Of a DNA stretch of 64,000 nt, positions 2 through 43,213 are shown in pieces. The stretch is from Flavobacteriales bacterium. GTDB lineage: Bacteria; Bacteroidota; Bacteroidia; Flavobacteriales; BACL11. Below the pieces are notes generated by a model. It made no database searches, was not told the origin of the DNA, and saw only the letters and a list, made by a program, of their open reading frames with translations. How positions within the stretch are numbered: the first letter of the stretch is position 1; each line of letters begins with the position of its first letter. Position numbers and translations under genes: made by a program. Location of the stretch: NCBI GenBank assembly GCA_002712715.1, contig PAUF01000007.1, positions 514,134 to 578,133 on the forward strand, given 5' to 3'.

Positions 2-403
2 GGAATGAAACAAGAAAAATTTGGAAGAATTATTAATATTATTTCAACTTCTGTTAAAGCTCCAATTCCTGGACTAGGAGTTTCCAACACAATTAGAGCT
101 GCTGTAGCAAATTGGGCAAAAACATTATCTATTGAATTAGGTCCATATGGGATAACTGTTAACAATGTACTTCCAGGATTTACAAATACTAATAGACTTA
201 AAAGTCTGATTGAGAAAAAGTCACAAGTACAAGGTAAATCAATTGAAAATATCACTCAAATCATGCAATCTGAAGTTCCTGCAGGAAGGTTTGGAGAAGC
301 GACTGAAGTAGCTAATGCAGTTGCTTTCCTTAGCACAAAAGAAGCCGCATATATAAATGGAATCAATTTACCAGTAGATGGTGGAAGAACAAAAAGCTTA
401 TAG
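2..403 (+). CDS. Short-chain dehydrogenase/reductase (SDR) family protein, C-terminal fragment (5' end off-window)
   Basis: The ORF is open to the window start. The translation GRIINIISTSVK...ITVNNVLPGFTNT...YINGINLPVDGG is a typical SDR C-terminal half. Confidence 0.7.
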   Translation, partial: GMKQEKFGRIINIISTSVKAPIPGLGVSNTIRAAVANWAKTLSIELGPYGITVNNVLPGFTNTNRLKSLIEKKSQVQGKSIENITQIMQSEVPAGRFGEATEVANAVAFLSTKEAAYINGINLPVDGGRTKSL

Positions 404-404
404 G

Positions 405-1847
405 ATGAAAAAAATTTTAAATTATATTGATGGTGAATTAATTGAACCGATTAACGGGGAATATTTAGACAATTTCAATCCTTCTACAGGTAAAGTATAT
501 TCTGTAGTACCAGATAGTGATCATGATGATATAAATAAAGCGGTAAAGGCAGCGCAAATAGCATATAATGAATGGAGTCAAACATCAAAAGAATATCGAT
601 CTGAAATGCTCTTGAAATTAGCAAATATATTAGAACTGCATACTCAAGAATTTATTGAGGCTGAAAGTAAAGACAACGGCAAACCTGAAACTTTAGCTGC
701 AAAAGTTGACTTACCTAGAGCGTTAACTAACCTTAGATTTTTCGCTTCTGCAATTCTACATGACAGCTCGGAAATGCATGATATGGATGGAGAAGCGATT
801 AATTATACATTAAGACAACCAATAGGTGTAGCGGCATGTATTTCAGCTTGGAACCTTCCAATATATTTACTTACTTGGAAAATAGCTCCAGCTCTTGCTA
901 CTGGGAATACTGTTGTTGCAAAACCTTCTGAAATTACACCCATGACAGCATATCTTTTTAGTAAAGTATGTATTGAAGCTGGACTTCCAAAAGGAGTTTT
1001 AAATATTGTTCATGGTGCCGGAAAGAAAGTAGGGGACCCATTAACTTCTCACCCTGATGTGCCAGTCGTATCATTCACTGGAGGTACTGCAACAGGACAA
1101 CATATATCAAGCATTACATCACCCATGTTCAAAAAACTATCTTTAGAATTAGGAGGAAAAAATCCAAATATTATATTTGATGACGCTGACTTCGAAAAAT
1201 CAGTTAGTTTCGCTTCTAGAGCCGCATTTACTAATCAAGGTCAAATATGCTTATGTGGATCAAGATTATTTATTCATGAAAAAATATATGAAAAATTCAA
1301 AAAAGCTTTAATTCAAAAAGCCTCTAAGCTAAATATTGGAAACCCTAGGTCAGCTGATTCTAATCTTGGAGCTGTTGTTTCAAAAGATCATATGAACAAA
1401 ATTTTATCTAAAATAAAAGAAGCTGAAAAATTGGGAGGAAAAATACTCTTAGGAGGAACTAGAAAGATTCTTCAAGGCGATCTAAAAGAGGGTTACTACA
1501 TTAATCCAACTATTATTGAAGGATTAGATTACAAATGTTCAATAAATCAAGAAGAAATTTTTGGACCTGTTGTTTCAATTATTCCATTTAAAGACGAAGA
1601 ACAAGTAATAACAATGGCTAATTCGACTAAATACGGCCTCTCCGCTTCAATTTTCACTGAAAATATTAGTAAAGCTCATAGGGTAGCTGCAAAAATTGAC
1701 TCTGGAGTAATATGGATTAATACATGGCTTCTTAGAGATTTAAGAATTCCTTTTGGAGGAATGAAGCACTCTGGTATTGGCAGAGAGGGTGGCTTTAATT
1801 CTCTAAGATTTTTTACAGAACCAAAAAATATATGTATTAAATTATGA
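405..1847 (+). CDS. NAD-dependent aldehyde dehydrogenase, probably 2-aminomuconate-6-semialdehyde dehydrogenase
   Basis: It has the ALDH motifs ELGGKNP and FTNQGQICLCGSR (catalytic Cys). It lies inside the kynurenine operon. I place the start at ATG 405 (MKKILNYIDGE), 1 nt after the upstream TAG, rather than at ORF-track 378. Confidence 0.75.
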   Translation: MKKILNYIDGELIEPINGEYLDNFNPSTGKVYSVVPDSDHDDINKAVKAAQIAYNEWSQTSKEYRSEMLLKLANILELHTQEFIEAESKDNGKPETLAAKVDLPRALTNLRFFASAILHDSSEMHDMDGEAINYTLRQPIGVAACISAWNLPIYLLTWKIAPALATGNTVVAKPSEITPMTAYLFSKVCIEAGLPKGVLNIVHGAGKKVGDPLTSHPDVPVVSFTGGTATGQHISSITSPMFKKLSLELGGKNPNIIFDDADFEKSVSFASRAAFTNQGQICLCGSRLFIHEKIYEKFKKALIQKASKLNIGNPRSADSNLGAVVSKDHMNKILSKIKEAEKLGGKILLGGTRKILQGDLKEGYYINPTIIEGLDYKCSINQEEIFGPVVSIIPFKDEEQVITMANSTKYGLSASIFTENISKAHRVAAKIDSGVIWINTWLLRDLRIPFGGMKHSGIGREGGFNSLRFFTEPKNICIKL

Positions 1848-2260
1848 ATGGACAAAAATTTAACTCATCAAGAGCTCCACAAGCTGTTGGACTTTATCCT
1901 CATGCAAGGAAGGTTGGAAACTTGCTTTTCCTTTCTGGTGTTGGCCCAAGGAAATTTGGTCAAAATAAAATTCCTGGAGTTACACTTAATGACCAAGGTA
2001 ATATAATTAGTTATGACATTAAACAACAATGTCATTCTGTTTTTGAAAACATTAAATATATCTTAGAAGATGCCGGATCTGCATGGGAAAACATTATTGA
2101 CGTTCAAGTATTTTTGACAAACATGAAAAATGACTTTAAAATTTATAATGAAATATACGCTGAATATTTTAAAGAAAATCAACCATGTAGAACAACAATT
2201 GAAATCAATAGTTTACCTACGCCAATAGCAATAGAATTAAAAGTAATAGCGACTATTTAA
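1844..2260 (+). CDS. RidA/YjgF-family protein (candidate 2-aminomuconate deaminase)
   Basis: The 138-aa size and RidA-like sequence fit the family. A 4-nt ATGA overlap couples it to the upstream ALDH. The specific role is inferred from operon context only. Confidence 0.6.
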   Translation: MNGQKFNSSRAPQAVGLYPHARKVGNLLFLSGVGPRKFGQNKIPGVTLNDQGNIISYDIKQQCHSVFENIKYILEDAGSAWENIIDVQVFLTNMKNDFKIYNEIYAEYFKENQPCRTTIEINSLPTPIAIELKVIATI

Positions 2261-2271
2261 AAATTAAAATC

Positions 2272-2799
2272 ATGGATATACAAAAACCTTTTAACTTACA
2301 AAAATGGATTGATGAAAATAGACATCATCTTAAACCTCCTGTTGGAAATAAAAATCTATATATTGAATCGGGAGATTATATAGTTATGATAGTTGCCGGA
2401 CCGAACGCAAGGAAAGACTATCACTATAACGAAACAGAAGAATTGTTTTATCAAATAGAGGGTGATATTATTGTTAAAACCCAACAAAATGGCAAATTAG
2501 TTGAGTATGAAATAAAAGAAGGAGACATGTTTCTTTTACCTGCAAAAATACCCCACTCTCCAGTGAGGTCAGCCGGATCAATAGGATTAGTGATTGAAAA
2601 GAAAAGAAATTCTAATCATAAAGATGGGCTTATGTGGTTTTCAGATACAGCTAATGAACTACTATATGAAGAATATTTTAATCTCACTAACATAGAAAAA
2701 GACTTTCTTCCTGTTTTTAAAAAGTTTTACTCTGATGAAAAATTAAGAACCTGCCCAAAAACTGGGGAAGTTATGGAAGTAGACAAAAGATATATTTAA
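2272..2799 (+). CDS. 3-hydroxyanthranilate 3,4-dioxygenase
   Basis: Cupin sequence blocks KPPVGNKNLY, VAGPNARKDYHYNETEELFYQIEGD and FLLPAKIPHSPVR match the conserved HAAO signature. Confidence 0.9.
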   Translation: MDIQKPFNLQKWIDENRHHLKPPVGNKNLYIESGDYIVMIVAGPNARKDYHYNETEELFYQIEGDIIVKTQQNGKLVEYEIKEGDMFLLPAKIPHSPVRSAGSIGLVIEKKRNSNHKDGLMWFSDTANELLYEEYFNLTNIEKDFLPVFKKFYSDEKLRTCPKTGEVMEVDKRYI

Positions 2800-2831
2800 A
2801 ATAAATCTGTTCTTAATATATATTTATAATT

Positions 2832-3869
2832 ATGCGTATAAATGGACACGGACATATTCTACCAGAACCTTCTCAGATTCCTAAGTTTATGAGGAAAAAG
2901 AAACTTTTTTGGATAGATGAAGACAAAAAATTTATGAGACAAGGAAATTGGTCAAGGCCAATTAATGGAACAGGATTTTTCATTGATGAAAAATTAGATT
3001 GGATGAAACAACACAATATAGATCATGGAGTTATGTTATCATTGTCTCAACTATACTGCAATGGATGGAAAAAAAACGATTGCCAAGATGTTATTAGTTT
3101 TCAAAATAATTTCAATGCATCTATTCAAGAAAATCATACAGAAAAATTCACATGCGGATTTGTGGTACAACCATTGTATACGGAACAAGCCCTAAAAGAA
3201 ATTGAGCGATGTGTAAATGATCTTAATCTTAAACTATTATGTCTGCCAACTCACTACATTAACAAAAACGGAGATTGGATGTCCACTGCAGAAAAAGAAG
3301 TTGATCCAATTTTTCAATTAGCTAATGAATATAAATTAGCGGTGCAAATTCACCCATATGATGGAGAAAAAATGATTGCTCTAAAAAACGCATATTGGAG
3401 ATTTCATTTAATATGGATGATGGCTCAATGTGCAGACACATTACATTTATTTACATTAAGAGATTTACCTAACAAATATCCAAATATTCGAACTTGTTTT
3501 GCTCATGGTGGAATGCTAGGGATAGCAAACTATGGTAGAAGAATTCAGGGTTTTGATGGACGTCCAGATATATTTGAAAATTTAGAAGACCCTCGAAAAA
3601 CCTTAGGTCATAAAAATTTATATTTTGACACATTAGTACATGACTCACACACATTAGATTTAATAAAAAAACGAGTGGGTTCAAATCAACTAATAATGGG
3701 TTTAGATGACCCTTTTCCATTAGGTGAAATTGATGGAGTTGGAACCTCATATCCGGGAAGAGTATTAGACTACGCAATTCAAGTAGGAATATTTTCTAAA
3801 CAAGAAGGAAAAGATATTTGGCATAAAAACATTTTAAATTGGTTAGGCAAGGATATTATTAAGAGATGA
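2832..3869 (+). CDS. 2-amino-3-carboxymuconate-6-semialdehyde decarboxylase (ACMSD, amidohydrolase_2 family)
   Basis: The N-terminal metal motif MRINGHGHILP (HxH) and a length of about 345 aa fit the family, as does its position between the HAAO and formamidase genes. Confidence 0.75.
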   Translation: MRINGHGHILPEPSQIPKFMRKKKLFWIDEDKKFMRQGNWSRPINGTGFFIDEKLDWMKQHNIDHGVMLSLSQLYCNGWKKNDCQDVISFQNNFNASIQENHTEKFTCGFVVQPLYTEQALKEIERCVNDLNLKLLCLPTHYINKNGDWMSTAEKEVDPIFQLANEYKLAVQIHPYDGEKMIALKNAYWRFHLIWMMAQCADTLHLFTLRDLPNKYPNIRTCFAHGGMLGIANYGRRIQGFDGRPDIFENLEDPRKTLGHKNLYFDTLVHDSHTLDLIKKRVGSNQLIMGLDDPFPLGEIDGVGTSYPGRVLDYAIQVGIFSKQEGKDIWHKNILNWLGKDIIKR

Positions 3870-4666
3870 AAGCCATAATTAAAATAAAAAAAAATAATTA
3901 TGAAGTAGACTTCTCTAAAGGAAATGATATTTCTATTCCCATGATCTTTAACGGAGAACAACCTAATACTTATAATGTCAACAAAGCAGTGTCTAAGCCA
4001 TATAAGGATGGCAATTTCATTGGAGATACTCGTAAAGGTGGTCCTTGCAATTTTGAAACATACACATTAACTCCACATTGTAATGGAACTCATACAGAAT
4101 GTATAGGCCATATAACAAAAGAAAGAATTTCAATTTTAAATTCATTAAAAAAAGAACTGTTTGCATCAACATTAATTAGTATTATTCCAGAAAATTCAAA
4201 AGAAAATTATTATCCAATTCTAAATGAAAATGATAAGATTATTTCAAAGAAAATATTAGAAGAAAAATTAACTGAAATAAAACCTGAATTTTTAGAAGGA
4301 TTGATTATTAGAACATTGCCTAACAAGGTGAAAAAAAAGAATAGAAATTATATTGAAAATCCACCCTGTTTTCTTTCAATAGACGCTATGGAATATATTG
4401 TTCAGTTAGGAGTTCAACATTTACTAGTAGATATTCCATCTGTTGATAGACTTTTTGATGATGGAATACTATCTTCCCACAACATATTTTGGAAAACTAA
4501 AGAGAAGAAATTTAATGAAGAAACTATTAACAAAACTATTACTGAAATGATTTTTGTTCCTAATAAAATTTCTGATGGAACATACATTACAAACCTTCAG
4601 TGCGCTCCATTTGATTCAGACGCTTCTCCAAGTAGACCTATTTTATACAAAATCCATGGAATATAA
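3866..4666 (+). CDS. kynB: Cyclase-family protein, probable kynurenine formamidase
   Basis: The motif HCNGTHTECIGH resembles the cyclase/KynB HxGTHxDxPxH motif but deviates from it (extra residue, E for D). A 4-nt overlap couples it to ACMSD, and it sits in the operon. Confidence 0.55.
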   Translation: MKAIIKIKKNNYEVDFSKGNDISIPMIFNGEQPNTYNVNKAVSKPYKDGNFIGDTRKGGPCNFETYTLTPHCNGTHTECIGHITKERISILNSLKKELFASTLISIIPENSKENYYPILNENDKIISKKILEEKLTEIKPEFLEGLIIRTLPNKVKKKNRNYIENPPCFLSIDAMEYIVQLGVQHLLVDIPSVDRLFDDGILSSHNIFWKTKEKKFNEETINKTITEMIFVPNKISDGTYITNLQCAPFDSDASPSRPILYKIHGI

Positions 4667-5909
4667 AACAACCAAAGAGTACGCGAAAAATCTAGATAGA
4701 AAAGATACGTTAGCAAAATACCGAAATCAATTTCATATCCCACTACAAAAAAATGGAGAGGAATATATATACTTTTGCGGTAACTCATTGGGATTGCAGC
4801 CAAAAAAAACCAAAGAATATGTGGATCAAGAAATTATTGACTGGGCAAATCTTGGAGTTGAAGGGCATCTAAACGCTAAAAACCCTTGGCTTCCATATCA
4901 TGAATTTTTAAGCTCAGGCTACGCAAATTTACTTGGAGCTAAAGCATCTGAAGTAATTGCAATGAATACCTTGACAGTTAATCTTCATTTAATGATGATT
5001 TCCTTCTATAATCCTACCAAAGAAAAATTCAAAATCATAATTGAATCAGACGCCTTTCCCTCAGATATTTATGCTGTAGAATCTCAAATCAGACTTCATA
5101 ATTTAGATATAAATAAATCCTTAATTAAAATTAAACCTAGAGAAGGAGAAACGGTAATAAGAATTCAAGATATAGAAAACCTTATTGAAAAAGAAGGTGA
5201 TAAAACGACGCTTATTTTATTAGGAGGAGTCAACTATTACACTGGACAAGTTTTCGAGATGAAAAAAATCACAGAACAAGCTCAAAAGAAGAATATAAAA
5301 GTAGGTTTTGACTTGGCTCATGCTATTGGAAACATTAGATTAAATCTACACAAATGGGGAGTAGATTTTGCAGTTTGGTGCTCATATAAATATCTCAACT
5401 CTGGTCCTGGATCTATTGGAGGAGCGTATATACATGAAAAACATCACTCCGCTCATCTTCCTAGACTTTGTGGGTGGTGGGGTCATAATAAAGATGATAG
5501 ATTTAAAATGCCTAAAAAGTTTAATCCAATACAAACAGCAGAAGGATGGCAATTAAGCAACCCTCCGATTTTATCATTAGCAGCTATAAGATCATCACTT
5601 AGTATATTCGATGAAGTTAGCATGGAAAAACTAATAGTTAAATCAAAAAACCAATCTAAATATCTTAGAGATTTACTGAAAACAATAAATACCGAAAGAA
5701 TAGAAATTATAACACCTGAGGATAGCGGATGTCAAACATCGATTCGAGTAAAATATGGGAATAAACTATTATACGAGAAAATCTCGGAGGAAGGCATTAT
5801 TGCTGACTGGAGAGAACCTGATGTTATTCGAATAGCTCCTGTACCTCTTTATAATTCTTATTTAGATATATATAAATTTTATAAGATTTTACATAAATTA
5901 ATTAAATGA
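4656..5909 (+). CDS. kynU: Kynureninase (PLP-dependent)
   Basis: It has the signature WCSYKYLNSGPG (PLP-Lys) and the N-terminus MEYKTTKEYAKNLDRKDTLAKYRNQFHIP. I place the start at ATG 4656. The ORF-track extension from 4554 lies inside the upstream gene. Confidence 0.9.
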   Translation: MEYKTTKEYAKNLDRKDTLAKYRNQFHIPLQKNGEEYIYFCGNSLGLQPKKTKEYVDQEIIDWANLGVEGHLNAKNPWLPYHEFLSSGYANLLGAKASEVIAMNTLTVNLHLMMISFYNPTKEKFKIIIESDAFPSDIYAVESQIRLHNLDINKSLIKIKPREGETVIRIQDIENLIEKEGDKTTLILLGGVNYYTGQVFEMKKITEQAQKKNIKVGFDLAHAIGNIRLNLHKWGVDFAVWCSYKYLNSGPGSIGGAYIHEKHHSAHLPRLCGWWGHNKDDRFKMPKKFNPIQTAEGWQLSNPPILSLAAIRSSLSIFDEVSMEKLIVKSKNQSKYLRDLLKTINTERIEIITPEDSGCQTSIRVKYGNKLLYEKISEEGIIADWREPDVIRIAPVPLYNSYLDIYKFYKILHKLIK

Positions 5910-7240
5910 AAAAACAAATAACAATTATTGGAGCGGGACTGGTAGGTTCATTGTGCTCATTATATATGAGCAAAAGAGGTTATGATGTAAATGTATTTGA
6001 AAGAAGAAGAGATCTAAGAAACGATAACATTTCTGCAGGAAAGTCAATTAATTTAGCTCTTTCTAAAAGAGGATGGACTGCGCTAGAAAGGGTAGGTGTA
6101 GATAAAGACGTAATGAAAATCGCGATTCCTGTATACAAAAGAATCATGCATGATAAAGATGGAAATTTAACACATCAACAATATGGAAAGAAAGATGAGG
6201 CAATATATTCAGTATCAAGATCTTTAATAAACCTATTGATGATGGATTTAGCAGAAAAAAACGGTGCTAAAATCTTCTTTAACGAAAAATGCGTAGACAT
6301 AAACTTCGAAAAAACTCAAGCTATATTTGAAAACACAAATACAAAAAAAACAACAATATCTGTATCTGATTTTATAATTGGTGCGGACGGAGCTTTTTCA
6401 GAAGTGAGAAAAAAAATGGTAGAGAAATTAAAACATGAATATAGGTATGATGAAATAGAACATGACTATAAAGAATTGTTAATACCCGCGGGGGAAAACA
6501 ATAAGTACCTAATGGATAAAAACGCGCTACATATATGGCCAAGAGGTAATTTTATGCTGATGGCCTTAGCAAATTTGGATGGGAGTTTCACATGCACACT
6601 ATTTGCTCCTAAAACAGGAAATAATTCATTCGAAAAACTAAAAGATCAAAAATCAGTAGAAAAATACTTTACAAAGAACTTTTTAGACTTTAGCCAAATA
6701 GTACCTGATTTATACGAACAATGGACAAATAACCCAACATCAAAATTAGGGATAATAAAAACGTATCCATGGCATAACAAAAATAATACAATTCTATTAG
6801 GAGACTCAGCTCATGCAACAGTACCATTCTACGGACAGGGTATGAACTGTGGATTTGAAGACTGCAGAATACTTGATGAACTATTAGAAAAACATGAAAA
6901 TATAGAAGAATGCTTTAATGAATATTCTCAAATCAGAAAACCTAATGGTGATGGTGTACAAGAATTATCGATGCACAACTTTATTGTAATGAGAGATAAA
7001 ACAGCAGATCCTAATTTCTTACTTCAAAAGAAAATAGAAAATAAATTTTCAAAAAAATACCCAGAATTATGGCAACCACTATATAGTATGGTTTCGTTTA
7101 CAAATATTGAGTACTCGAAAGCAATAAAAATAGGCGAAAAACAAGAAAATATTATGAAAACTATTATGCAAGAAAAGGATATTCATTTAAACTGGGACTC
7201 AGAAGAGACAATGAAAAAAATTAAATCACTAATTACTTAA
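5906..7240 (+). CDS. kmo: Kynurenine 3-monooxygenase (FAD-dependent)
   Basis: It has the FAD fingerprint IIGAGLVGS and the block GDSAHATVPFYGQGMNCGFEDC. A 4-nt overlap couples it to kynU. Confidence 0.9.
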   Translation: MKKQITIIGAGLVGSLCSLYMSKRGYDVNVFERRRDLRNDNISAGKSINLALSKRGWTALERVGVDKDVMKIAIPVYKRIMHDKDGNLTHQQYGKKDEAIYSVSRSLINLLMMDLAEKNGAKIFFNEKCVDINFEKTQAIFENTNTKKTTISVSDFIIGADGAFSEVRKKMVEKLKHEYRYDEIEHDYKELLIPAGENNKYLMDKNALHIWPRGNFMLMALANLDGSFTCTLFAPKTGNNSFEKLKDQKSVEKYFTKNFLDFSQIVPDLYEQWTNNPTSKLGIIKTYPWHNKNNTILLGDSAHATVPFYGQGMNCGFEDCRILDELLEKHENIEECFNEYSQIRKPNGDGVQELSMHNFIVMRDKTADPNFLLQKKIENKFSKKYPELWQPLYSMVSFTNIEYSKAIKIGEKQENIMKTIMQEKDIHLNWDSEETMKKIKSLIT

Positions 7241-7355
7241 TAATTCTCGCATTATATCGATTTTTGAGCAAAATAATTCGTTTTTAAGACATTTAATGTG
7301 AAAAAAACAGTTTTTTAAAAAATAATATTTCATAAATAATATGATTTATTACATA

Positions 7356-7458
7356 TTTTTTACACATTTTTAAAGGTTTTTTACACATTTTTACACATTT
7401 TTAAAGTTTTTTTACACATTTTTACACGTTTTTACACGTTTTTACACGTTTTTACACA
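7356..7458 (+). repeat. Direct array of 8 T-tract+ACAC(A/G) units at 10/21-bp spacing
   Basis: TTTTACACA occurs at 7358, 7379, 7389, 7410 and 7450. TTTTACACG occurs at 7420, 7430 and 7440. All copies are in the same orientation. Confidence 0.9.
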
Positions 7459-7920
7459 TTTTCAAAAGCTTTTTGAGGATTTAATAAAATCAAATTATGT
7501 TATTTACACTCATTTTAAAAAAATCGAAACATATTTTTAATATAATTAAATCATTTCTAACTAAATAAATATTAAAAAAGAAGAAGTAGAAAAAAATGAA
7601 TTTATTACATTTTTTTAAACTTTTCGTTCATTTTTTTACACTTTTAGTTAATTTTTTGACACTTTAGTCTGTTTTTCAACACTATATAGTGATTTTAAAC
7701 ATCTCTCTATCAAATAAAAATCAAAAAACTATTAATATTTACAATAACTGTAGCCTTAAAAAAATAAAAAATGACTAAAAAAAGCACAAAAAGCACAAAA
7801 AAACATTAAAAAAAACATTAAAATGAAAAAAAAAGACACATTAATAAAAATTATTAACATTTAATAAGTATTAAAGAAACCATTTTTATAAATATTTATA
7901 GTTAAATGATTTTTTGTAAT

Positions 7921-7928
7921 TATATTTG
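7921..7928 (+). promoter_or_regulatory. Bacteroidota-type -7 promoter box TATATTTG
   Basis: It matches TAnnTTTG and lies 21 nt upstream of ATG 7949. Confidence 0.4.
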
Positions 7929-7948
7929 AATAATAATTTCAAGACAAA

Positions 7949-8143
7949 ATGGAACAAATTGTAAAAATAATTTCATTCGTAGTACTATTCTTTTTAATAA
8001 ATTATCTTTTAATATTTTTTATTTATAACGTGGATCCATTTATTCATATGGGCGACTATCAATGGACATTAATTACCAGTATAGCTTCTTCTTTTTTAAT
8101 AACTAATTTTGTAGTTCTAAGAATTTTCAAGAATAAGAAATGA
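7949..8143 (+). CDS. Small hypothetical membrane protein (two predicted TM helices)
   Basis: The 64-aa ORF has two hydrophobic stretches. Its stop overlaps the next start (ATGA at 8140), and a -7 box lies upstream. Confidence 0.4.
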   Translation: MEQIVKIISFVVLFFLINYLLIFFIYNVDPFIHMGDYQWTLITSIASSFLITNFVVLRIFKNKK

Positions 8144-8904
8144 ATTTAAGAAAAATTATATTTCTATTACTAATTTCTGTCATTTCGTGTAAAATTCAAT
8201 CTTCACATAAAAACGACAATATAGAATTTGATAAGACAATAATTCTTCTATCCAAATCTTCTGAAAATTATACTAAATGGCTATATGATGAAAATACAAT
8301 ATTTATTGACGCCTACAATTCTGAAAATATTGATAGCATTTTATTGATCGCCGACGGAATAGTTTTAACTGGAGGAGAAGATATTAACCCAAAAGAATAT
8401 AATGACACTTTAAACATTCCTCTTTGTGGCACCATTAATTATAGGAGAGATACACTTGAAAGAACAATTTTTAACTATGCACTTAAATCAAAAATTCCAT
8501 TCGTAGGTATATGTAGGGGTATGCAAATGATGAATGTTGCATGCGGAGGAACCCTTTATGGTGACATACCTACACAAATTGGAAACAAAGTTACACATAG
8601 AAACAAAGGAGAAGTAATGCACGACATTTATTTAGTAGACACAAGCTCCTTAATTTTCCCTATTAAAACGAATACCTTTAACGTAAATTCATGGCATCAT
8701 CAAGGATTAAATTTGATTGCAGATAACATTAGAGTATTAGCAAGATCTTATGACGGCCTCCCTGAAGCGGTAATTATGAAAAAAAAGATACATCCATATA
8801 TGATAGCAGTTCAGTTTCATCCCGAAAGACTTGGTAATCAAAACATAATAAGCAAGACAATAAAAAAAAGTTTTTACAGAGCTATAAAACAACACAATGA
8901 TTGA
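8140..8904 (+). CDS. Peptidase C26 / class-I glutamine amidotransferase-like gamma-glutamyl hydrolase, with a lipoprotein-type signal
   Basis: It has the catalytic Cys block GICRGMQMMNVACGG and the His/Glu block VQFHPE. The N-terminus MNLRKIIFLLLISVISC looks like a lipoprotein signal peptide. Confidence 0.75.
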   Translation: MNLRKIIFLLLISVISCKIQSSHKNDNIEFDKTIILLSKSSENYTKWLYDENTIFIDAYNSENIDSILLIADGIVLTGGEDINPKEYNDTLNIPLCGTINYRRDTLERTIFNYALKSKIPFVGICRGMQMMNVACGGTLYGDIPTQIGNKVTHRNKGEVMHDIYLVDTSSLIFPIKTNTFNVNSWHHQGLNLIADNIRVLARSYDGLPEAVIMKKKIHPYMIAVQFHPERLGNQNIISKTIKKSFYRAIKQHND

Positions 8905-14535: not shown

Positions 14536-14781
14536 ATGGATAAGAAAAAAGGAATTATTGTAATACTTATCGCTGCAGTTGCAATCTGGTGGTTCATGAA
14601 AGAACCTGCAGAAGCTACACCAGCTGGTGATGGGGATCAAAACCCTCCAACTAATGTACCTGCTTCTACTGATGGTGGAGATACTGATGGTGGAGACACT
14701 GATGGTGGAGACACTGATGGTGGAGACACTGATGGTGGAGACACTGATGGTGGAGATACTGATGGTGGAGACACTAAGTAA
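14536..14781 (+). CDS. Small N-terminally membrane-anchored protein with an acidic (DGGDT)x7 tandem repeat
   Basis: The 81-aa protein has a TM segment IIVILIAAVAIWWF, a Pro/Thr linker and then 7 perfect pentapeptide repeats. It has its own -7 box and a strong terminator. Confidence 0.7.
   Translation: MDKKKGIIVILIAAVAIWWFMKEPAEATPAGDGDQNPPTNVPASTDGGDTDGGDTDGGDTDGGDTDGGDTDGGDTDGGDTK
14671..14775 (+). repeat. In-frame 15-bp tandem repeat x7 (GATGGTGGAGA[C/T]ACT)
   Basis: Seven head-to-tail copies differ only at one synonymous position (copies 1 and 6 carry GAT). Confidence 0.95.
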
Positions 14782-14803
14782 AATTACAATTTGAAAAAAT
14801 AAA

Positions 14804-14830
14804 GAAGACGTCTTTTAGACGTCTTTTTTT
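14804..14830 (+). terminator. Rho-independent terminator
   Basis: AGACGTCT (14806-14813) pairs with AGACGTCT (14817-14824) around a TTT loop, followed by a T-run to 14830. Confidence 0.8.
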
Positions 14831-25824: not shown

Positions 25825-27411
25825 TTAAAAATCGTAATATTTATTAAACATATCTGACTTAATAGCAAAGAAAGTAAAATTTGTAACTCTAGGACTATAA
25901 CTTTCATGATGAATTTGTGGATTTAAATATCTCAACAAATGACCTATCTCTAATTTCAAGTTAGTTGTAGGATTAATTAAATAAGAAATAGAGAATTTAC
26001 AAGATACAAGTTTGGTATCATTTCCCTGAAACATGTGTATTCCATAATCTGAAGGTCGATTAGAATTTGTCACGAAAATATCATCACCATAATTTGTAGG
26101 GTTGCCAGGAATTTTAGATCCATATCGAGCTCGCATATATTGTGTATTAAAATACCATTTGTTATATTTATAATCTATAAAAACTAATAGCTCATTGAAA
26201 TTAGATCCTAATGGATGAGATAAAGACTCGTAATAATGTCCATAATTTTGACTTACACTGACATGAGAATACATATAAGGTCTAGCATAGTTGTTTTCTA
26301 TTTGTAAGATTAAATTAGATATATTAAAAAGGTCATAATATTTATATCCTAACTGAAAAGAGTATTTATTGCCCCACCATCCATCACCATTTTTTATAGA
26401 TGGTTGTGAAAACTCATCCAGAACAAACTGACCATACGTATTTGAATTTTTATTAATTAAATATTTGAAATTTATTCCCATTAAATAATTATCTGAAGAA
26501 TTTAATGAAAACTCTACAGGTCTTAAGAAAATTATAGGATTTAAATAAGCGATATCAAATCCAGAAAATTCTGGAGTTCTAATATTATCCCAGATTATAG
26601 TTTCATAAAGGCCTAAATTCCATCTATCACCAATATTTATACTTAGATGATGCAGTGTCATATATTTTCGATTATAAGTAATATCTTGAGAAGGGTTAGA
26701 CATCATGTCAATATGTTCCATATATAAATTAGTATACTTAAATTTACCAATAGAGGTAACTAACTTTAAATATGGATAATTAAAAGCATTGTCAGACAAT
26801 ATCATGGATCGATACCCATCGCCAATGAAATTTTTTCCTGTACCAAATTGTACATCAAGATAATTAGACAGCTGTAACGTAAAATTAGCAGAAGACATGC
26901 TATAATCAAAAATTGAATCATTAGTCCAACGAGATTCTCCTTGGCCAGGTATTATCCATGCATTTCTATTAAAAATAAAATTATTAATATAGGTTGGGAA
27001 TCTTGATTGATTTTCAAAAAAACTAGAAGTAAAGATTAATTTATTACCAATTTTACCTTCTAAAAGAAAACCTCTGGTATTATTCCATTTATATTGTTCA
27101 GAACCAAACTCACGATCTATTTCCAAATGAACAATTGGATTAAAAGCAAAATAATATTCATGATTTTTAGATATTAAAAAATTTTCATCCATTAATTTTC
27201 TTTGTAACCAATTTTTATTCATATCAAAATTTGATATGCTATCAATTTGAAAAGAGTATAAAGGTTTTACAGCAGTATGTAAGTCACTTCCTATCTGATT
27301 TCTTTCTTTTTCATTGTGGATGACATAATCTCTATCTAAACTTTGATATAATTTTTGATTAAAAGAATTAAATGAATAGAAAAAAAATATAAGTGCAAAC
27401 AAAAACCTCAC
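25825..27411 (-). CDS. Predicted outer-membrane beta-barrel protein (possibly capsule-assembly Wzi-like)
   Basis: It has a signal peptide, an aromatic-rich alternating sequence and a C-terminal ...KYYDF. A 4-nt overlap links it to the upstream wecA-like gene. The family assignment is tentative. Confidence 0.45.
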   Translation of the reverse strand: MRFLFALIFFFYSFNSFNQKLYQSLDRDYVIHNEKERNQIGSDLHTAVKPLYSFQIDSISNFDMNKNWLQRKLMDENFLISKNHEYYFAFNPIVHLEIDREFGSEQYKWNNTRGFLLEGKIGNKLIFTSSFFENQSRFPTYINNFIFNRNAWIIPGQGESRWTNDSIFDYSMSSANFTLQLSNYLDVQFGTGKNFIGDGYRSMILSDNAFNYPYLKLVTSIGKFKYTNLYMEHIDMMSNPSQDITYNRKYMTLHHLSINIGDRWNLGLYETIIWDNIRTPEFSGFDIAYLNPIIFLRPVEFSLNSSDNYLMGINFKYLINKNSNTYGQFVLDEFSQPSIKNGDGWWGNKYSFQLGYKYYDLFNISNLILQIENNYARPYMYSHVSVSQNYGHYYESLSHPLGSNFNELLVFIDYKYNKWYFNTQYMRARYGSKIPGNPTNYGDDIFVTNSNRPSDYGIHMFQGNDTKLVSCKFSISYLINPTTNLKLEIGHLLRYLNPQIHHESYSPRVTNFTFFAIKSDMFNKYYDF

Positions 27412-28520
27412 TTTCTTGTTTCTCTAATTCTTAATAAAATAAATGGAAATGACATACAGCTTAAGACAAAAGCAGATAAAGCAAAAATAGCTAATGAATG
27501 CTCATATTGAATCAATTGATAAGAAATACAAATAATTACTATGCTAAATATCCATAAAATAATACTTGATGTTCTATGGCCAAATCCTAAATCTAAAAGA
27601 GCATGATGAATATGATTTCTATCAGCATGTAAAGGATTGTATCCAGAAAGGGACCTAATTATAAATATCCTAAAAGTGTCGTATAATGGTACAGCTAAAA
27701 TTGCAATAGCCATAAAAGGACCCCTTTTACCGAAACGACTTTCATTTATCAAATCATCTCCAAAGGGCAAAGCAACTCCTTCGTTAATTAATCTTATTGC
27801 AAAAATAGACAATATCATTCCTACAACAAGTGAGCCTGTATCTCCCATAAAAATAGAAGCTGGATTAAAATTAAATCTCAAAAAAGCTAATAAGGATCCA
27901 ATAACTGCAAAAGATAAAATAGTAAAGCCATAGTCTTGATTTAAAAAAAACAAAAAACCAAAAAAAGCTGAAGATATTACCCCTAGACCTCCAGCAAGAC
28001 CATCAATTCCATCTATTAAATTATATGCATTTGTAATAACAATTACTACAAAAATTGTAAAAAATATTGATAACGACATCGGTAAAGCTTGAATTCCTAA
28101 AACCCCCATCATACTTTTTATTTCCAATCCACCCAAAAAAATAAGTATTAAAACAGCTACAATCTGAGATATTAATTTTTTTATAGGAGTTAAGGAAAGT
28201 AAGTCATCAATTAATCCCGTAAAAAAGATAATTATAATACTAAAAATAATTGCCAATCCTATCTTAAGATCTTGAACAATAATACTTACATCTTCATTCT
28301 CTATCCACAACAATGTCCTCCAAATTAATAACGACATAAGTATACCAACAAAAATACCGGCCCCTCCAAAAATAGGGACTTTTCCTTTATGAGAATGTCT
28401 TCCAGCCTTCGCTGCGTACAACCTTGAATTCTTAGCGAATTGAATAATTTTAGGAATAGCAAAATATGTTATAACAAAGGATGTTAACATTGGAGCAATA
28501 AATATTTTCAAAATCTCCAT
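27408..28520 (-). CDS. Polyprenyl-phosphate HexNAc-1-phosphate transferase (WecA/MraY family, initiating transferase)
   Basis: It has about 10 TM helices and the motifs NAYNLIDGIDGLAGG and FMGDTGS. Confidence 0.8.
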   Translation of the reverse strand: MEILKIFIAPMLTSFVITYFAIPKIIQFAKNSRLYAAKAGRHSHKGKVPIFGGAGIFVGILMSLLIWRTLLWIENEDVSIIVQDLKIGLAIIFSIIIIFFTGLIDDLLSLTPIKKLISQIVAVLILIFLGGLEIKSMMGVLGIQALPMSLSIFFTIFVVIVITNAYNLIDGIDGLAGGLGVISSAFFGFLFFLNQDYGFTILSFAVIGSLLAFLRFNFNPASIFMGDTGSLVVGMILSIFAIRLINEGVALPFGDDLINESRFGKRGPFMAIAILAVPLYDTFRIFIIRSLSGYNPLHADRNHIHHALLDLGFGHRTSSIILWIFSIVIICISYQLIQYEHSLAIFALSAFVLSCMSFPFILLRIRETRK

Positions 28521-28527
28521 TTTTTAT

Positions 28528-29565
28528 CTATTTCTTAAAATGTTTAATATTATTAATATCAGATGCAACCATTTCTTCACAAATATTAGATATTGAAACA
28601 TTAGGACTCCAACCAAGTAGTGATTTTGCTTTGGAATAATCGCCAATCAAAGCATCAACTTCTGCATGCCTAAATAATTTTTTATTTACTCTCACAATTA
28701 TTTTACCTGTATTAACATCTACCCCAACTTCCTCTACTCCCTTTCCTTCCCAAACAACATCAATGTCAACTATTTTAAAAGCCATCTCTGCAAATTGTCT
28801 TACAGTAAACGCCTCCCCTGTGGCTAAAACAAATGTATCTGGTTTATCATTTTGCATCATTCGAAACATTCCTTCTACATACTCGGGAGCGTACCCCCAA
28901 TCTCTACTAGCGTCCAAGTTACCTAATTCTAAATATTCTATTTCACCTTTTAATATTTTTGCAACACCTACAGAAATTTTCCTAGTAACAAATTCCATTC
29001 CTCTTAGAGGGGATTCGTGATTAAAAAGAATTCCACTACATGCAAAAATACCATAAGACTCTCGATAATTTGTTACCATCCAATGAGCATACAGTTTAGA
29101 AATACCATAAGGACTTCTGGGATAAAAAGGTGTAGATTCTTTTTGAGGAAACTCTAACGCTTTTCCATATAACTCTGATGTAGATGCTTGATAGAATTTA
29201 ATTTTCGTATCAACTAATCTTATTGCTTCTAACATATGTGTAACTCCAAGACCCGTAATCATACTAGTAGCAATTGGCTGATCAAATGATACATGTACAA
29301 AGCTTTGGGCGGCTAAATTATAAATCTCATCAGGATTAATACTTTGTACCATGCGAACTGTACTTAAAGGATCTATCAAATCATGCTCAACTAATTGCAA
29401 TCGGTCATGATTATTTATTTTCAAATATTCAATTCTCCAAAAATTCTGAGAACTTGTTCTTCTATACGCTCCATATACCATATATCCCTTATCTAACAAT
29501 AGCTTAGCTAAATAAGCTCCATCCTGTCCGGTAATTCCTGTAATTATTGCTTTTTTCATTATCAA
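28528..29565 (-). CDS. gmd: GDP-mannose 4,6-dehydratase family enzyme (may act on GDP-heptose)
   Basis: It has the blocks [27 protein letters not shown] and [16 protein letters not shown]. The start may be the third codon (MKKAIITG, 29559). Confidence 0.85.
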
Positions 29566-29590
29566 TTATGGTTAAGAATGGTAAAGATAC

Positions 29591-30097
29591 TTATTTTATA
29601 TAAGTAAATAAATTACTCCAGTTTTTTAATGTGAAATTTTCAGATAATTTAATAGATTTAATACCCATAGAGAGTCCCGCTTCAATATCCGAATCTGAAT
29701 CTCCTAATAAATAAGATTTTTTAAAATCAATGTCGGGAAATTCTTGAGCAGCTTGAATTATCATTCCAGGTTTTGGCTTTCTACAATTACATTCGAAATT
29801 TTCTAGATGAGGACAAAAATATATTTTATCAATTTTAACATTATATTTACTCAACTCATCTAACATTTGAGAATGTAAATTTAACAAATCGTTTTCTGTC
29901 ATTAATCCTTTTCCTATACCTTGCTGATTAGTAATGATTATAATTCTTTGAAATTTTTTACTTAAAATTCTCAGAGAGTCAAAAACTCCATCTATAAAAT
30001 TAAACTCTTCATAACTACTAATATAACCTGAAATCTTCTTGTTAATTACTCCGTCTCTATCCAGAAATAGAGTGGAAAACTCAACTTCATGACTCAT
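29591..30097 (-). CDS. gmhB: D-glycero-D-manno-heptose 1,7-bisphosphate phosphatase (HAD)
   Basis: It has the blocks FLDRDGVIN and CxCRKPKPGM. I place the start at ATG 30097 (MSHEV), 1 nt after the gmhA stop. The ORF-track extension to 30142 overlaps gmhA. Confidence 0.8.
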   Translation of the reverse strand: MSHEVEFSTLFLDRDGVINKKISGYISSYEEFNFIDGVFDSLRILSKKFQRIIIITNQQGIGKGLMTENDLLNLHSQMLDELSKYNVKIDKIYFCPHLENFECNCRKPKPGMIIQAAQEFPDIDFKKSYLLGDSDSDIEAGLSMGIKSIKLSENFTLKNWSNLFTYIK

Positions 30098-30098
30098 A

Positions 30099-30671
30099 TT
30101 AAAATAATTTTTTTTCAATAATTTCACATAAAATGTGACCAAATAAAATATGTGACTCCTGAACTCTAGCGGTATTATTTGATGGGGATTTTACTGATAT
30201 ATTACACAAATCACTTAACTTGCTCTTGTCTTTTCCTGTAAAACAAACACTCACAATCCCTAACTTATTTGCCTCAATAACAGCATTTACAATATTCTCT
30301 GAATTTCCTGAAGTTGATATCGCAATCAAAACATCACCTTTCATGCCCATAGCCTTCAACATGCGAGAGTAAACATTTTCGTATCCATAGTCATTAGCAA
30401 CTGCTGTAACATATGAGGAGTTTACATGTAATGCTTCTGCAAATAGTGGTTCTCTATCCATATTAAACCTGCCACTTAACTCCGCAGCGATATGCTGAGC
30501 ATCAGCAGCGCTGCCTCCATTTCCGCATAAGAGCAGCTTATTTCCCCTTTTATATGCATCTATAACACTTTCTACAGATAATTGAAGATTATCTAATATG
30601 TTTTTATCTTCTAATATTAGTGATTTTACACTAATTGAATCATTAATTAATTTTACAATTTGCTCATTCAT
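30099..30671 (-). CDS. gmhA: Phosphoheptose isomerase (SIS domain)
   Basis: It has the blocks CGNGGSAADAQHIAAEL and ISTSGNS and is 190 aa long. Confidence 0.88.
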   Translation of the reverse strand: MNEQIVKLINDSISVKSLILEDKNILDNLQLSVESVIDAYKRGNKLLLCGNGGSAADAQHIAAELSGRFNMDREPLFAEALHVNSSYVTAVANDYGYENVYSRMLKAMGMKGDVLIAISTSGNSENIVNAVIEANKLGIVSVCFTGKDKSKLSDLCNISVKSPSNNTARVQESHILFGHILCEIIEKKLF

Positions 30672-30713
30672 ATTAAATGATATTCAAGTTACATTGCTAA
30701 TATATACATATTA

Positions 30714-31856
30714 TCACAATAAGTTTTTGTATACTTCAGATGTTTTGTGCCCTATAATTTTCCAATCATAATGATTGATAATAAATTCTCTTCCTTTATC
30801 ATTAATCCTAATTAAATCCTCAAAATTCTGGAAAATATGATCTATTTTAGAAGATAAAGAAGAAGGAGATCCATTTTTAAATACATAACCTGTGTCATTG
30901 TCAATAATAACCTCAATTAAGGGTTCTAAATCTGAAACCAATACTGGCTTATTATAACTCATGCTCATCAACAAAACTCCACTTTGATAAATACGAGTAT
31001 ATGGTAAAACTACCAAATCAGCTGCCGAATAATAAAACTTAACATCCTCATGGGAAATGAAATAATTATGAATAATACAATAATCTGATAATTTATTATC
31101 ATTAATTATTTTTTGATAATAAGAAAAATCATCTTTCCAAGCTCTGCCAGCAATGACTAACACAAGATCTTGATTATTCTTAACTACTTCTTTCAATGAT
31201 TTCAACAAAACATCCAAACCTTTATTTTTTTTGATCATTCCAAAAAACAACAACACTTTTTTACTTTCATCAATTCCTATTTTTTTTCTCGAATCGGACT
31301 TATCTACATTTAATTTTACAAAGGGAATATAATTGCCGTGAGGAACTATTTCAACATCGGTTAAATAATAATTTTCTAATAATATTTTTCTAGAAAAACT
31401 ATTATGAGTCAACAACTTATCAGCTCTTTTAAACAACCATTTATTTAATTTTTTATTTGACATTTTATCATCAAAACTAATTACATCATGTATTGTATAA
31501 ACTAATTTCATTGACAAAATTTTCACTAAGAGAAAATCAACTATATTTAATAAATTTGGATGAAAAATATGAAAATGACAAATTTTAGATCCTGAAATCT
31601 TAGCATGAAAAATAGATCTAACTGAACCTATTATATATCTAAAAGCTCTCAATATACGATTATCATTAGAGTAAATTTTATTATAAAATTGATGAAAATT
31701 CAAACCCTTAATTTCTGGATTAGAAGTTATTTCATTAGTATATAAATTTACTTCTACACCAGCATTAATCAAACCGCTTGATTGACCGAACAAGTAATAA
31801 TGATGCGAACTTCCATGAGCACCTAAAGGGTCTATTATTGATACTTTTTGTCTCAT
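30714..31856 (-). CDS. Glycosyltransferase, GT4/GT-B fold
   Basis: At 380 aa, it has a C-terminal GT-B donor-binding region (…SGVLLMSMSYNKPVLVSDLEPLIEVI…). Confidence 0.7.
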   Translation of the reverse strand: MRQKVSIIDPLGAHGSSHHYYLFGQSSGLINAGVEVNLYTNEITSNPEIKGLNFHQFYNKIYSNDNRILRAFRYIIGSVRSIFHAKISGSKICHFHIFHPNLLNIVDFLLVKILSMKLVYTIHDVISFDDKMSNKKLNKWLFKRADKLLTHNSFSRKILLENYYLTDVEIVPHGNYIPFVKLNVDKSDSRKKIGIDESKKVLLFFGMIKKNKGLDVLLKSLKEVVKNNQDLVLVIAGRAWKDDFSYYQKIINDNKLSDYCIIHNYFISHEDVKFYYSAADLVVLPYTRIYQSGVLLMSMSYNKPVLVSDLEPLIEVIIDNDTGYVFKNGSPSSLSSKIDHIFQNFEDLIRINDKGREFIINHYDWKIIGHKTSEVYKNLL

Positions 31857-31857
31857 A

Positions 31858-32766
31858 TTATAATTTTAATCCTTCAAAAAAGGATTTATTAATTAATTTC
31901 CAAGTACTGAAGTTTTTCTGAATATCAATTCTGATAAAAAACTTTAAATTATTCTTAAAAAATAAATAACTAATATATAGGTAAGAGTAAAAAGTACCTA
32001 CTTTTTTTAAAAAATATACATGATTTCGAGTATTCTGTTTAATAAAAAAATCTCCCCTAAAATTTTTATTATTTATGGATTTAAATGATTTAGTAAGTCC
32101 TCCTACTTTATGAAAAAACAACACGTCTGAGAAATAAAAAAGCTTATGTTTTTTATGCTTATAAACTCTATATAAAAAATCAGTATCGTCAAAATAAACA
32201 AAATACTTTTCATCCATATAACCAATATCATGAAAAACAGTATCCTTAATTAACAAACAGCATGTAGGCGCATACTGAGTTTGAAAAATACCATCATACA
32301 ATTGACTATCAGGCTTGCGATTTCCAAAATGGATAGGCAATAATCCTTTAGATTTCACAAAATTACTTCCTGCATACCAAATAATCGAATTATCATCATG
32401 ATATAATATTTTTGGGGCTACCATTGAACAATTATTATTATATTGAATCTCAACCATTTTTTTTATTAAATCATGCTCACATTTAATATCATTGTTAAGT
32501 AATAAAACATTACTACAGTAATCCTCAAGCGCTGCTTTTATTCCTATATTATTTGCTTTAGCTACTCCATAATTAATATTATTACATATTAATTTTACAC
32601 GATTATCTTTCTTTTTTTTTATTAGGCCAATAGTGTTATCTTGAGAGTTATTATCAATAATGTATATATTAAAATTATCATATGACTGATTCAAGATTGA
32701 GTCAAAAAAATCTTCTAAAAATTTCTCAGAATTATATGTAACAGTTACAATACCTATTTTTTCCAC
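31858..32766 (-). CDS. Glycosyltransferase family 2
   Basis: It has the blocks IGIVTVTYNSEKFL and IIDNNSQDNT and a GT-A fold. Confidence 0.8.
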   Translation of the reverse strand: MEKIGIVTVTYNSEKFLEDFFDSILNQSYDNFNIYIIDNNSQDNTIGLIKKKKDNRVKLICNNINYGVAKANNIGIKAALEDYCSNVLLLNNDIKCEHDLIKKMVEIQYNNNCSMVAPKILYHDDNSIIWYAGSNFVKSKGLLPIHFGNRKPDSQLYDGIFQTQYAPTCCLLIKDTVFHDIGYMDEKYFVYFDDTDFLYRVYKHKKHKLFYFSDVLFFHKVGGLTKSFKSINNKNFRGDFFIKQNTRNHVYFLKKVGTFYSYLYISYLFFKNNLKFFIRIDIQKNFSTWKLINKSFFEGLKL

Positions 32767-33611: not shown

Positions 33612-33627
33612 ACAATATGTATTATAA

Positions 33628-36233: not shown

Positions 36234-36237
36234 ATGA

Positions 36238-41603: not shown

Positions 41604-41610
41604 CTATATG

Positions 41611-43151: not shown

Positions 43152-43173
43152 TTACAATATACATGATTTTGAG

Positions 43174-43181: not shown

Positions 43182-43213
43182 GTAATTTTAAAGGAATTTA
43201 TTAAAAGAGTCTA

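Follow-up and report, generated by a model that had tools for sequence, protein, structure and literature searches.

Phased A-tract curved DNA is known from the bends of trypanosomatid kinetoplast minicircles and from curved DNA upstream of bacterial promoters, as at plc of Clostridium perfringens and in UP regions of the rrnB P1 type. Other kinds of element also come close to the locus described here, bacterial VNTRs or minisatellites among them. In Escherichia coli oriC the R boxes are accompanied by two opposed arrays of low-affinity sites with a 2-bp spacing, for which the consensus is TT(A/T)TNCACA, and among the plasmid iterons and centromeres the 11-bp repeats of R1 parC, the parC of pSK41 and the tubC of pBtoxis are examples. 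The locus is placed in a stretch of 64 kb (hereafter the window, by which we mean the whole stretch of DNA that was analysed). It carries eight closely packed copies of TTTTACACR, which the first-pass annotation had read both as an array of relaxed DnaA boxes, possibly marking an origin, and as strongly curved DNA. As a side observation, the organism belongs to the Bacteroidota, and among the products of the window are SprA and a number of proteins that bear T9SS sorting domains.

No ORF-free stretch of the window is longer than the one in which the repeats are found, a stretch being counted as ORF-free when it is covered by no ORF of at least 60 aa. This spacer has 708 bp, against 160 bp for the runner-up and a median gap of 22 bp, is also among the most AT-rich of the window, and divides the kynurenine-pathway operon from the next operon, which runs in the same direction. 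The landmarks are the following.

5906-7240, plus strand: kynurenine 3-monooxygenase-like FAD monooxygenase (KMO), the last gene of the kynurenine operon, recognised by Pfam; left synteny anchor.
7241-7948, no strand: intergenic spacer of 708 bp with 17% G+C.
7921-7928, plus strand: TATATTTG, the sole match in the spacer to the -7 element TAnnTTTG, 21 nt before the ATG at 7949.
7949-8904, plus strand: an ORF of 64 aa, hydrophobic (7949-8143), and then a peptidase C26/GATase (8140-8904); right synteny anchor.

The kynurenine operon (378-7240) comprises, according to Pfam, a complete set of genes for kynurenine/tryptophan catabolism, all on the plus strand: aldehyde dehydrogenase, 3-HAO, amidohydrolase, cyclase, kynureninase and KMO. 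The downstream operon continues on the plus strand with gpmI and then an M20 peptidase. TAnnTTTG is the -7 promoter element of Bacteroidetes, and from its sequence TATATTTG is the putative promoter of this second operon; a scan of the spacer for sigma-70 promoters gave the same counts as shuffled sequences. No hairpin terminator was found in the spacer, while clear hairpin terminators exist elsewhere in the window. The earlier statement that nothing coding explains the repeats was confirmed, the spacer (7241-7948) having no ORF longer than 34 aa, over the repeats or elsewhere, and no Rfam family at threshold; the only match at E<=1 was a chance one to a CRISPR-DR family (E 0.68).

Within the spacer the following repeat features were identified.

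7297-7305, minus strand: isolated TTTTTCACA, an inverted match to the relaxed box, from a motif scan.
7344-7474, plus strand: main T-tract minisatellite, about 12 units of 10-11 bp, from Tandem Repeats Finder, spacing and curvature.
7358-7458, plus strand: eight copies of TTTTACACR (five TTTTACACA and three TTTTACACG), from a motif scan.
7601-7696, plus strand: second T-tract array with a 21-bp period, from Tandem Repeats Finder (7601-7665 and 7609-7696).
7757-7850, minus strand: A-tract arrays, from Tandem Repeats Finder, with A-runs about every 10 bp.

A re-scan returned every position previously given for these motifs: on the plus strand TTTTACACA starts at 7358, 7379, 7389, 7410 and 7450 and TTTTACACG at 7420, 7430 and 7440, and the inverted TTTTTCACA is where it had been placed. 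The consensus fit was likewise reproduced, TTWTNCACA being matched exactly by the five copies of TTTTACACA and with one mismatch by the three of TTTTACACG. The perfect 10-bp tandem does exist, but it is made of five units (7409-7458) instead of the four (7419-7458) first counted. From start to start the eight copies are spaced by 21, 10, 21, 10, 10, 10 and 10 bp, and the spacings of 21 bp are explained by the fact that some units are of a variant type, ATTTTTAAAGK, which is devoid of the ACAC core. Tandem Repeats Finder accordingly reports a single array of period 10 (7344-7462, 11.5 copies), as well as a higher-order period of 31 bp, built as 11+10+10, over 7345-7474 (4.2 copies).

TTTTACACR is matched 10 times on both strands of the 64-kb window, where dinucleotide shuffles give 1.5 +/- 1.2, and as many as 8 of these matches are packed into 101 bp; chance is nevertheless an unnatural null for this count because the array is a tandem repeat. 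The relaxed consensus TTWTNCACA has 13 matches window-wide where 9.3 are expected, so that those outside the array are at chance level. This includes TTTTTCACA at 7297-7305, a single match in AT-rich DNA which nothing ties to the array.

The main array contains 12 T-runs of at least 4 nt, whose 3' ends are on average 10.27 bp apart (successive distances of 10, 11, 10, 10, 11, 10, 10, 10, 10, 9 and 12 bp), and its T-tracts are therefore placed on one face of the helix. It has, in other words, the A/T runs of 4 nt or more at every 10-11 bp by which phased A-tracts are recognised. The second T-array has a unit composed of two half-units, T6-7 ACAC and TTTTAGTT, and its TTTTAGT half resembles the unit type of some relatives (L138 and the L122 type). 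In the A-tract arrays AAAAAGCAC is repeated 2.6 times at 7779-7801 and AAAAAAACATTA 2.2 times at 7797-7823. Since they read as T-tracts on the minus strand, these arrays are inverted with respect to the T-arrays on the left, and their reverse complement, TTTTTGTGC, resembles the TTTTAGTGC of relatives. The cores thus differ inside one and the same spacer, being T5-ACAC in the left arrays and T5-GTGC (as reverse complement) in the right ones.

T-tracts that share one face of the helix lead to the prediction of strong intrinsic curvature. Two dinucleotide wedge models were used to calculate the ratio of end-to-end distance to contour length for each 105-bp segment of the 64-kb window, with wedge parameters that are said to be those of Bolshoy/Trifonov 1991. 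In both models the segment 7356-7460 ranks first among all segments of the window, with a ratio of 0.44 against a window median of 0.96 and a first percentile of 0.83, and its modelled bend is equivalent to that of a planar arc which turns through roughly 230 degrees within 105 bp. The A-arrays (7741-7845) rank second in both models, with ratios of 0.61 and 0.59, and the second T-array (7581-7685) is among the top curved segments (0.77 and 0.67), so that in spacer order there are three predicted curved blocks: T-array, T-array and inverted A-arrays. A measure that needs no parameters agrees with this: for the Fourier power of A4/T4 runs at periods of 10-11 bp, the three best windows are all inside the spacer. 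None of 200 dinucleotide-preserving shuffles of the spacer matched the observed curvature, which with the reported parameters is far above both the window background and composition-matched shuffles. The claim of strong curvature is consequently backed by computation, and the main array should be intrinsically strongly curved DNA.

The nearest sequences to the window are marine metagenome assemblies, and relatives were collected from metagenomes by means of KMO. The 12 loci in which KMO is 66-71% identical (given by their L numbers where they have to be told apart) mostly keep the order KMO, spacer, a small ORF in some cases, C26, gpmI and M20. All 12 have phased T-tract and/or A-tract arrays in the spacer that follows KMO. 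The AT-rich arrays of 10-bp period in these loci are all placed 0-470 bp past the KMO stop, none being found elsewhere in them, and in 12 of 12 this spacer also contains the most curved segment of the locus, with a ratio of 0.38-0.71 against 0.66-0.89 for the best segment elsewhere. In L133 and L128 the exact repeats have decayed, with the T-tract phase and the predicted curvature retained. Six more distant loci (KMO at most 63% identical) have no arrays and ratios of 0.87-0.91, so that the array is dispensable outside the clade.

Across genomes the repeat units form a graded family, in which the A-arrays are inverted T-units. Their cores include TTTTAGTGC, TTTTATTAC and TTTTTACAA, and in the orthologous arrays AGTGC, AGCGC, ATTAC, ACAA and GTGTC are found. 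The units of the relatives are as follows.

L122, T-unit: TTTTAGTGCG.
L124, T-units: ATTTTAGCGC and ATTTTATCGC.
L125, T-units: TTTTATTACA and TTTTTACAAC.
L127, T-unit: TTTTAGTGCA.
L138, T-unit: TTTTCTTACAC.
Relatives' units on the other strand: AAAAACACTA, AAAAAGACAC, AAAAATCATA, AAAAACGCAT and AAAAATGTAA.

Within an array the units are 80-100% identical, and between genomes they diverge fast. The ACACA core, from which the match to the DnaA box arises, is confined to the window's own population. That population is represented by one further locus, L121, which is 99.7% identical to the window, without indels and with the same copy number; as it is the only other population sample found, it informs little on the dynamics of the array. 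Among relatives the arrays measure from about 30 to more than 110 bp, and the spacers are 150-900 bp long. In several relatives a T-array begins 3-25 nt past the KMO stop (107 nt for the main array of the window), L129 and L131 have A-arrays only, and in L124 a tandem duplication of about 360 bp spans the whole module. The periods, in the window and in the relatives, are all of 10-11 bp or multiples of it, and the 31-bp super-period of 11+10+10, which has a T-type unit in the window, is also seen in L131, where the unit is of the A type and unrelated. An all-against-all blastn of the orthologous spacers found shared blocks outside the arrays only in promoter-proximal sequence and in the small ORF, and, as no other block is conserved, there is no conserved ncRNA. 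The same curved position with differing cores means that conservation extends to the phasing but not to the core that resembles a DnaA box; position, T-tract phasing and predicted curvature are the conserved properties.

The proposal that the repeats are a DnaA-box array belonging to an oriC found no support in strict boxes, in conservation of the cores, in DnaA-trios, in skew or in gene content. Ori-Finder-style scoring, which the first-pass annotation had suggested, gave no box in the spacer, there being none with at most one mismatch from TTATCCACA in 7241-8139, and 12 of 14 orthologous spacers also have no such box. An initiator motif is not conserved in the orthologous spacers, whose cores differ. 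A BUS is defined as a box, an interval of up to 16 bp and at least three NAN trios (PMC8287927). The spacer has three matches to this BUS/DnaA-trio pattern, against 1.7 +/- 1.25 in shuffles, and none of them is at the end of the array. An eye-catching AAGAAGAAGTAGAAAAAA at 7577-7595 was set aside, with no adjoining box in the required orientation.

The location of dnaA and dnaN had also been proposed as a check. Neither is present in the 64-kb window, and mnmG is absent as well (Pfam, and for dnaA also tblastn with a validated query). The absence of dnaA is weak evidence, and not decisive against an oriC, because in Bacteroidetes oriC is commonly distant from dnaA (PMC4755523). In a flavobacterium oriC was reported to be linked to mnmG (PMC12843772). 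An ORF of 623 aa at 54140 was considered as a candidate mnmG that would mark the true origin, and it proved to be an Omp28/T9SS protein; it is situated at a local minimum of cumulative skew between divergent genes, and this minimum tracks gene orientation.

The strongest evidence against an origin is the GC skew at third codon positions (GC3 skew). On the plus strand it is about -0.25 over 8-64 kb, that is, over the 56 kb to the right, whichever strand the genes occupy, and this region for that reason belongs to one replichore, in which the plus strand is the lagging one. The three genes to the right of the spacer have values of -0.33, -0.40 and -0.25, which is the opposite of the right side of an origin, and the six genes to its left average -0.02. 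Among the relatives the GC3 skew is positive on both flanks in L122, L124, L125, L126, L127 and L138 and goes from weakly positive to negative across the spacer in L130, L131 and L123. The change from negative to positive that is expected of an origin was seen in no genome, neither in the window nor in the relatives. A conserved terminus was also considered and rejected, there being no consistent skew switch among the relatives and no dif-like site in the spacer.

A separate observation concerns the kynurenine genes, whose GC3 skew exceeds that of the remaining genes on the plus strand of the window by about 0.2 (p about 0.002). A similar contrast between kynurenine genes and others is present in L130, and a tendency of the kynurenine genes to more positive values is also seen in relatives in which both flanks belong to the leading strand. 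The difference is therefore probably a gene-specific bias.

A scan of a genome collection for three copies of TTTTACACR found at least 120 loci in very diverse taxa, including archaea. Among the loci listed none has dnaA in the 8-kb block and none is syntenic with the window, and their contexts are heterogeneous (T9SS cargo, TonB receptor and GNAT genes). With such contexts and no dnaA among the matches listed, a TTTTACACR array is not diagnostic of anything. An oriC with same-orientation DnaA boxes could still appeal to the relaxed matches at helical spacing, to the length and AT-richness of the spacer and to its two opposed arrays, which recall the low-affinity arrays of E. coli oriC. Against these stand a GC3 skew of the wrong sign on the right and near zero on the left, with no switch in any relative, a spacer in which no box comes as close to TTATCCACA as a single mismatch, the cores of the relatives, which are not DnaA boxes, a trio count not above that of shuffles, the missing replication genes of the window and the lack of dnaA around the TTTTACACR loci listed; we consider this reading extremely unlikely.

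Other explanations do not involve an origin. The main rival of the best reading given below, possible though not probable, is that the array is a neutral or selfish minisatellite, in which an ancestral 10-bp T-rich unit was seeded in the spacer and goes on growing, shrinking and being homogenised through slippage, and both the curvature and the likeness to DnaA boxes are functionless by-products. The high identity within arrays together with the fast divergence of units between genomes, the duplication of the whole module in L124, the variable size of array and spacer and the absence of arrays from the more distant relatives are what such a process would leave behind, and the shared ancestry of one 10-bp unit could explain the periods of about 10 bp, as an inheritance, without selection. 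Nevertheless, a spacer of 150-900 bp persists in 12 of 12 relatives at approximately genus-level divergence in a compact genome, phasing and curvature outlast the decay of the repeats in L133 and L128, no period other than 10-11 bp or its multiples is seen, the 31-bp super-period arose twice, and the copy number is unchanged in the second population sample. The array could also, in line with the other array-forming binder of which the first-pass annotation spoke, carry a sequence-specific protein that forms a filament on one face of the DNA, in the style of an iteron, centromere or operator, its specificity co-evolving with the unit. Direct repeats once per helical turn, in two opposed sets, would suit such a protein, and the units of the relatives have a weak common pattern (T4-5, A or G, and 3-4 nt that are often GTG/TGC/CAC). 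We find it improbable, as no DNA-binding, rep or par gene is adjacent in the window or in the relatives, the neighbours being metabolic, the cores vary widely even among the arrays of the window's own spacer, and decayed arrays hold the phase and lose the sequence. Blastn against 72,556 plasmids and 50,697 phages gave no match, in a search whose low-complexity filter masks the arrays themselves.

A cluster of DnaA boxes outside the origin, of the datA/DARS or B. subtilis cluster type, which would titrate or modulate DnaA in this lineage only, would agree with the five exact and three one-mismatch copies of TT(A/T)TNCACA in 101 bp and with a position away from the origin, as is the case for datA-type sites. 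Moreover, the repeat unit differs at one permissive position from the E. coli R2 box, TTATACACA. However, the CACA core is in no orthologous array, and whatever is conserved here would for this reason not be the binding of DnaA; no box differs from TTATCCACA by one mismatch or less, and the 9-mers are separated by 1 bp, more tightly than the 2 bp of the E. coli low-affinity arrays, all of which makes this reading quite improbable. We also judge very unlikely a hairpin-less transcription stop, in which U5 tracts, in the transcript of the kynurenine operon and in antisense transcripts across the A-arrays, would pause and release RNA polymerase so as to form a bidirectional terminator or insulator. 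It is consistent with the lack of a hairpin terminator after KMO, with the T-arrays that begin a few nucleotides past the KMO stop in several relatives and with their polarity, the T-arrays facing left-hand and the A-arrays right-hand transcription, but bacterial intrinsic termination normally requires a hairpin, the array of the window starts 107 nt past the stop, and L129 and L131 have only A-arrays.

The best reading, in our opinion, and one for which the chances seem about even, is that of a structural curved-DNA element with an architectural or regulatory role. The eight repeats would be those units of a T-tract minisatellite in helical phase that bear ACAC. Its T-tracts, being on one face of the helix, would curve the array strongly, and the three curved blocks would together fill the unusually long spacer that leads from the kynurenine operon to the promoter of its neighbour. 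Selection would act on the shape of the DNA and not on the letters after the T-tract, since position and phasing are conserved and those letters are not; the relaxed match to the DnaA box would then be a lineage-specific coincidence of the present repeat unit. Slippage or unequal exchange may turn the units over and homogenise each array by concerted evolution. Regarding its role, the element may provide upstream curved DNA for the promoter at about 7921, or a platform, at that promoter, for RNA polymerase or for nucleoid proteins that sense curvature, or a physical boundary between two operons that have no hairpin terminator between them. The main array is 460-570 bp upstream of the sole promoter-like element, which is far for a classical upstream activating bend. 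A bolder proposal, which we regard as doubtful, is that the inverted phased T/A-tract arrays are a dedicated, shape-encoded architectural locus of the chromosome in a marine flavobacterial clade, which would insulate the operons from each other mechanically or topologically, or on which an array-forming protein would load or bind (in nucleoid organisation, segregation or lineage-specific titration of DnaA).

Literature searches found no description of such arrays in flavobacteria. The locus shows that an array of DnaA boxes may look like one from a textbook and still lead to a false call of an origin, as the relaxed consensus is met five times and yet the comparative and skew data exclude an origin, and it calls for caution in motif-based prediction in AT-rich Bacteroidota. 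It also offers a clean natural case in which several genera have kept a DNA shape, the helical phasing of T-tracts, at one syntenic position in spite of drift in the sequence, in the setting of a compact genome that tolerates almost no other non-coding DNA. If the curvature is functional, the locus would be an example, accessible to experiment, of selection that acts on the intergenic DNA of bacteria through its shape alone.

Compared with the known systems, the locus has in common with oriC DnaA-box arrays that TTTTACACA fits the relaxed consensus, in the same orientation and at roughly helical spacing, and that an opposed array is present in the spacer. It departs from them in lacking a skew switch, a high-affinity consensus box and a DnaA-trio signal above that of shuffles; moreover, the core is not conserved, the 9-mers have 1-bp gaps and replication genes are not nearby. 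Plasmid iterons and centromeres are similar in that their short direct repeats keep helical register and are grouped into more than one cluster, on which a protein filament could form along one side. Unlike them, the locus is chromosomal and placed between metabolic operons, has no blastn match to plasmid DNA under a filter that masks the arrays and its repeat is not conserved between the arrays of one spacer; nor is there a cognate Rep/Par gene, the neighbours being KMO, the 64-aa membrane peptide, peptidase C26, gpmI and the M20 peptidase.

Bacterial VNTRs or minisatellites are similar in their head-to-tail 10-bp units, high identity within arrays, fast divergence and module duplication (L124), but here the period follows the helical repeat strictly, a compact genome has long conserved the position, the phase outlives the identity of the repeats and the copy number is the same in the one other population sample. 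To phased A-tract curved DNA the locus is alike in that one face of its helix presents a run of 4-7 T (or A) at intervals of 10-10.5 bp, in its strong, planar-like predicted curvature and in its intergenic position upstream of a promoter. It differs from typical bacterial promoter bends in that its tracts are the units of an exact minisatellite and follow one another 12 times, a number that those bends reach only in small part, and in having its main block about 0.5 kb from the promoter, and from phased A-tract bends in general in its three blocks of inverted T/A polarity and in the retention of one syntenic spacer across a clade while the unit sequence turns over. What sets the element apart is thus that the array is long and exact, that its blocks are inverted and helix-locked, and that in a compact marine flavobacterial genome it is conserved by position and shape only.

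In relative L124, a marine metagenome locus fetched via the kynurenine 3-monooxygenase-like gene (KMO), a tandem duplication of ~360 bp spans the whole module of phased T-tracts and inverted A-tracts (L124:1831-2515), so that the copied stretch comprises ~20 nt from the 3' end of KMO, then a T-array, a spacer, an A-array and a promoter-like TAAATTTG. The module can thus be copied as a single unit.

The following features were found in the window:

14536-14781, plus strand: 81-aa ORF with a signal/TM-like N-terminus and (TDGGD)x7 as its C-terminal half
~14785-14830, both strands: perfect palindromic hairpin GACGTCT...AGACGTC, flanked by A-runs and T-runs
27408-44290, minus strand: large polysaccharide gene cluster
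45485-52612, minus strand: SprA (2375 aa), type IX secretion translocon
~56012-56060, both strands: perfect palindromic hairpin CCTCATCT...AGATGAGG, flanked by A-runs and T-runs

The two hairpins can be read as bidirectional intrinsic terminators, which shows that canonical terminators are in use in this genome; no such hairpin lies after KMO. The (TDGGD)x7 stretch is encoded by a 15-bp tandem repeat (14668-14775, 96% identical). The polysaccharide cluster, which holds four sulfotransferase genes and genes for an APS kinase, a CysQ-like phosphatase, glycosyltransferases, a Wzy-like protein and a flippase, looks like sulfated surface polysaccharide machinery. Several proteins with a Por_Secre_tail domain are also encoded in the window and, together with SprA, they place the organism in the Bacteroidota.

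Two further sites were considered in connection with a replication origin. A 41-bp tandem repeat (54003-54087, 2.1 copies) lies inside a 136-bp spacer of 12% G+C between two divergent genes for T9SS-sorted proteins. An origin at this place was rejected, since the local cumulative GC-skew minimum tracks gene orientation, and the adjoining 623-aa gene is not mnmG, its product being an Omp28-like protein. At 7577-7595, AAGAAGAAGTAGAAAAAA forms six DnaA-trio-like triplets in a row (3'-[G/A]A[T/A]-5'), with no DnaA box in the required orientation beside it, and the run is probably due to chance, given DNA of 83% A+T. The plus-strand GC3 skew is about -0.02 in the six kynurenine-operon genes (378-7240) versus a mean of -0.22 in all other plus-strand genes (8140-64000; p ~0.002), and a similar left/right contrast is seen in relative L130. 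This offset could reflect a gene-specific bias, recent acquisition or a replichore boundary nearby, to the left of the window.

In the collection scan for TTTTACACR arrays, the matches listed include dozens of arrays over many contigs of MAG CBDDTI01 (L013, L018, L035, L040, L045, L047, L059, L095, L105 and L118), with as many as 20 pattern matches per 8 kb, which looks like a genome-wide satellite. Also among the matches listed are eight loci of other Bacteroidota (L011, L022, L023, L025, L036, L038, L093 and L099) with arrays of 21-bp period, frequently at contig ends and, in L023 and L036, upstream of T9SS-cargo or TonB-receptor genes. Each unit begins with TTTTACAC[A/G], followed by ~12 variable nt, the presence of TTTTACAC being an ascertainment effect because the search pattern selected for it; in the Prevotellaceae locus L022, the unit has TGTGGAT as well. 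What is notable is the two-turn period common to these eight loci.
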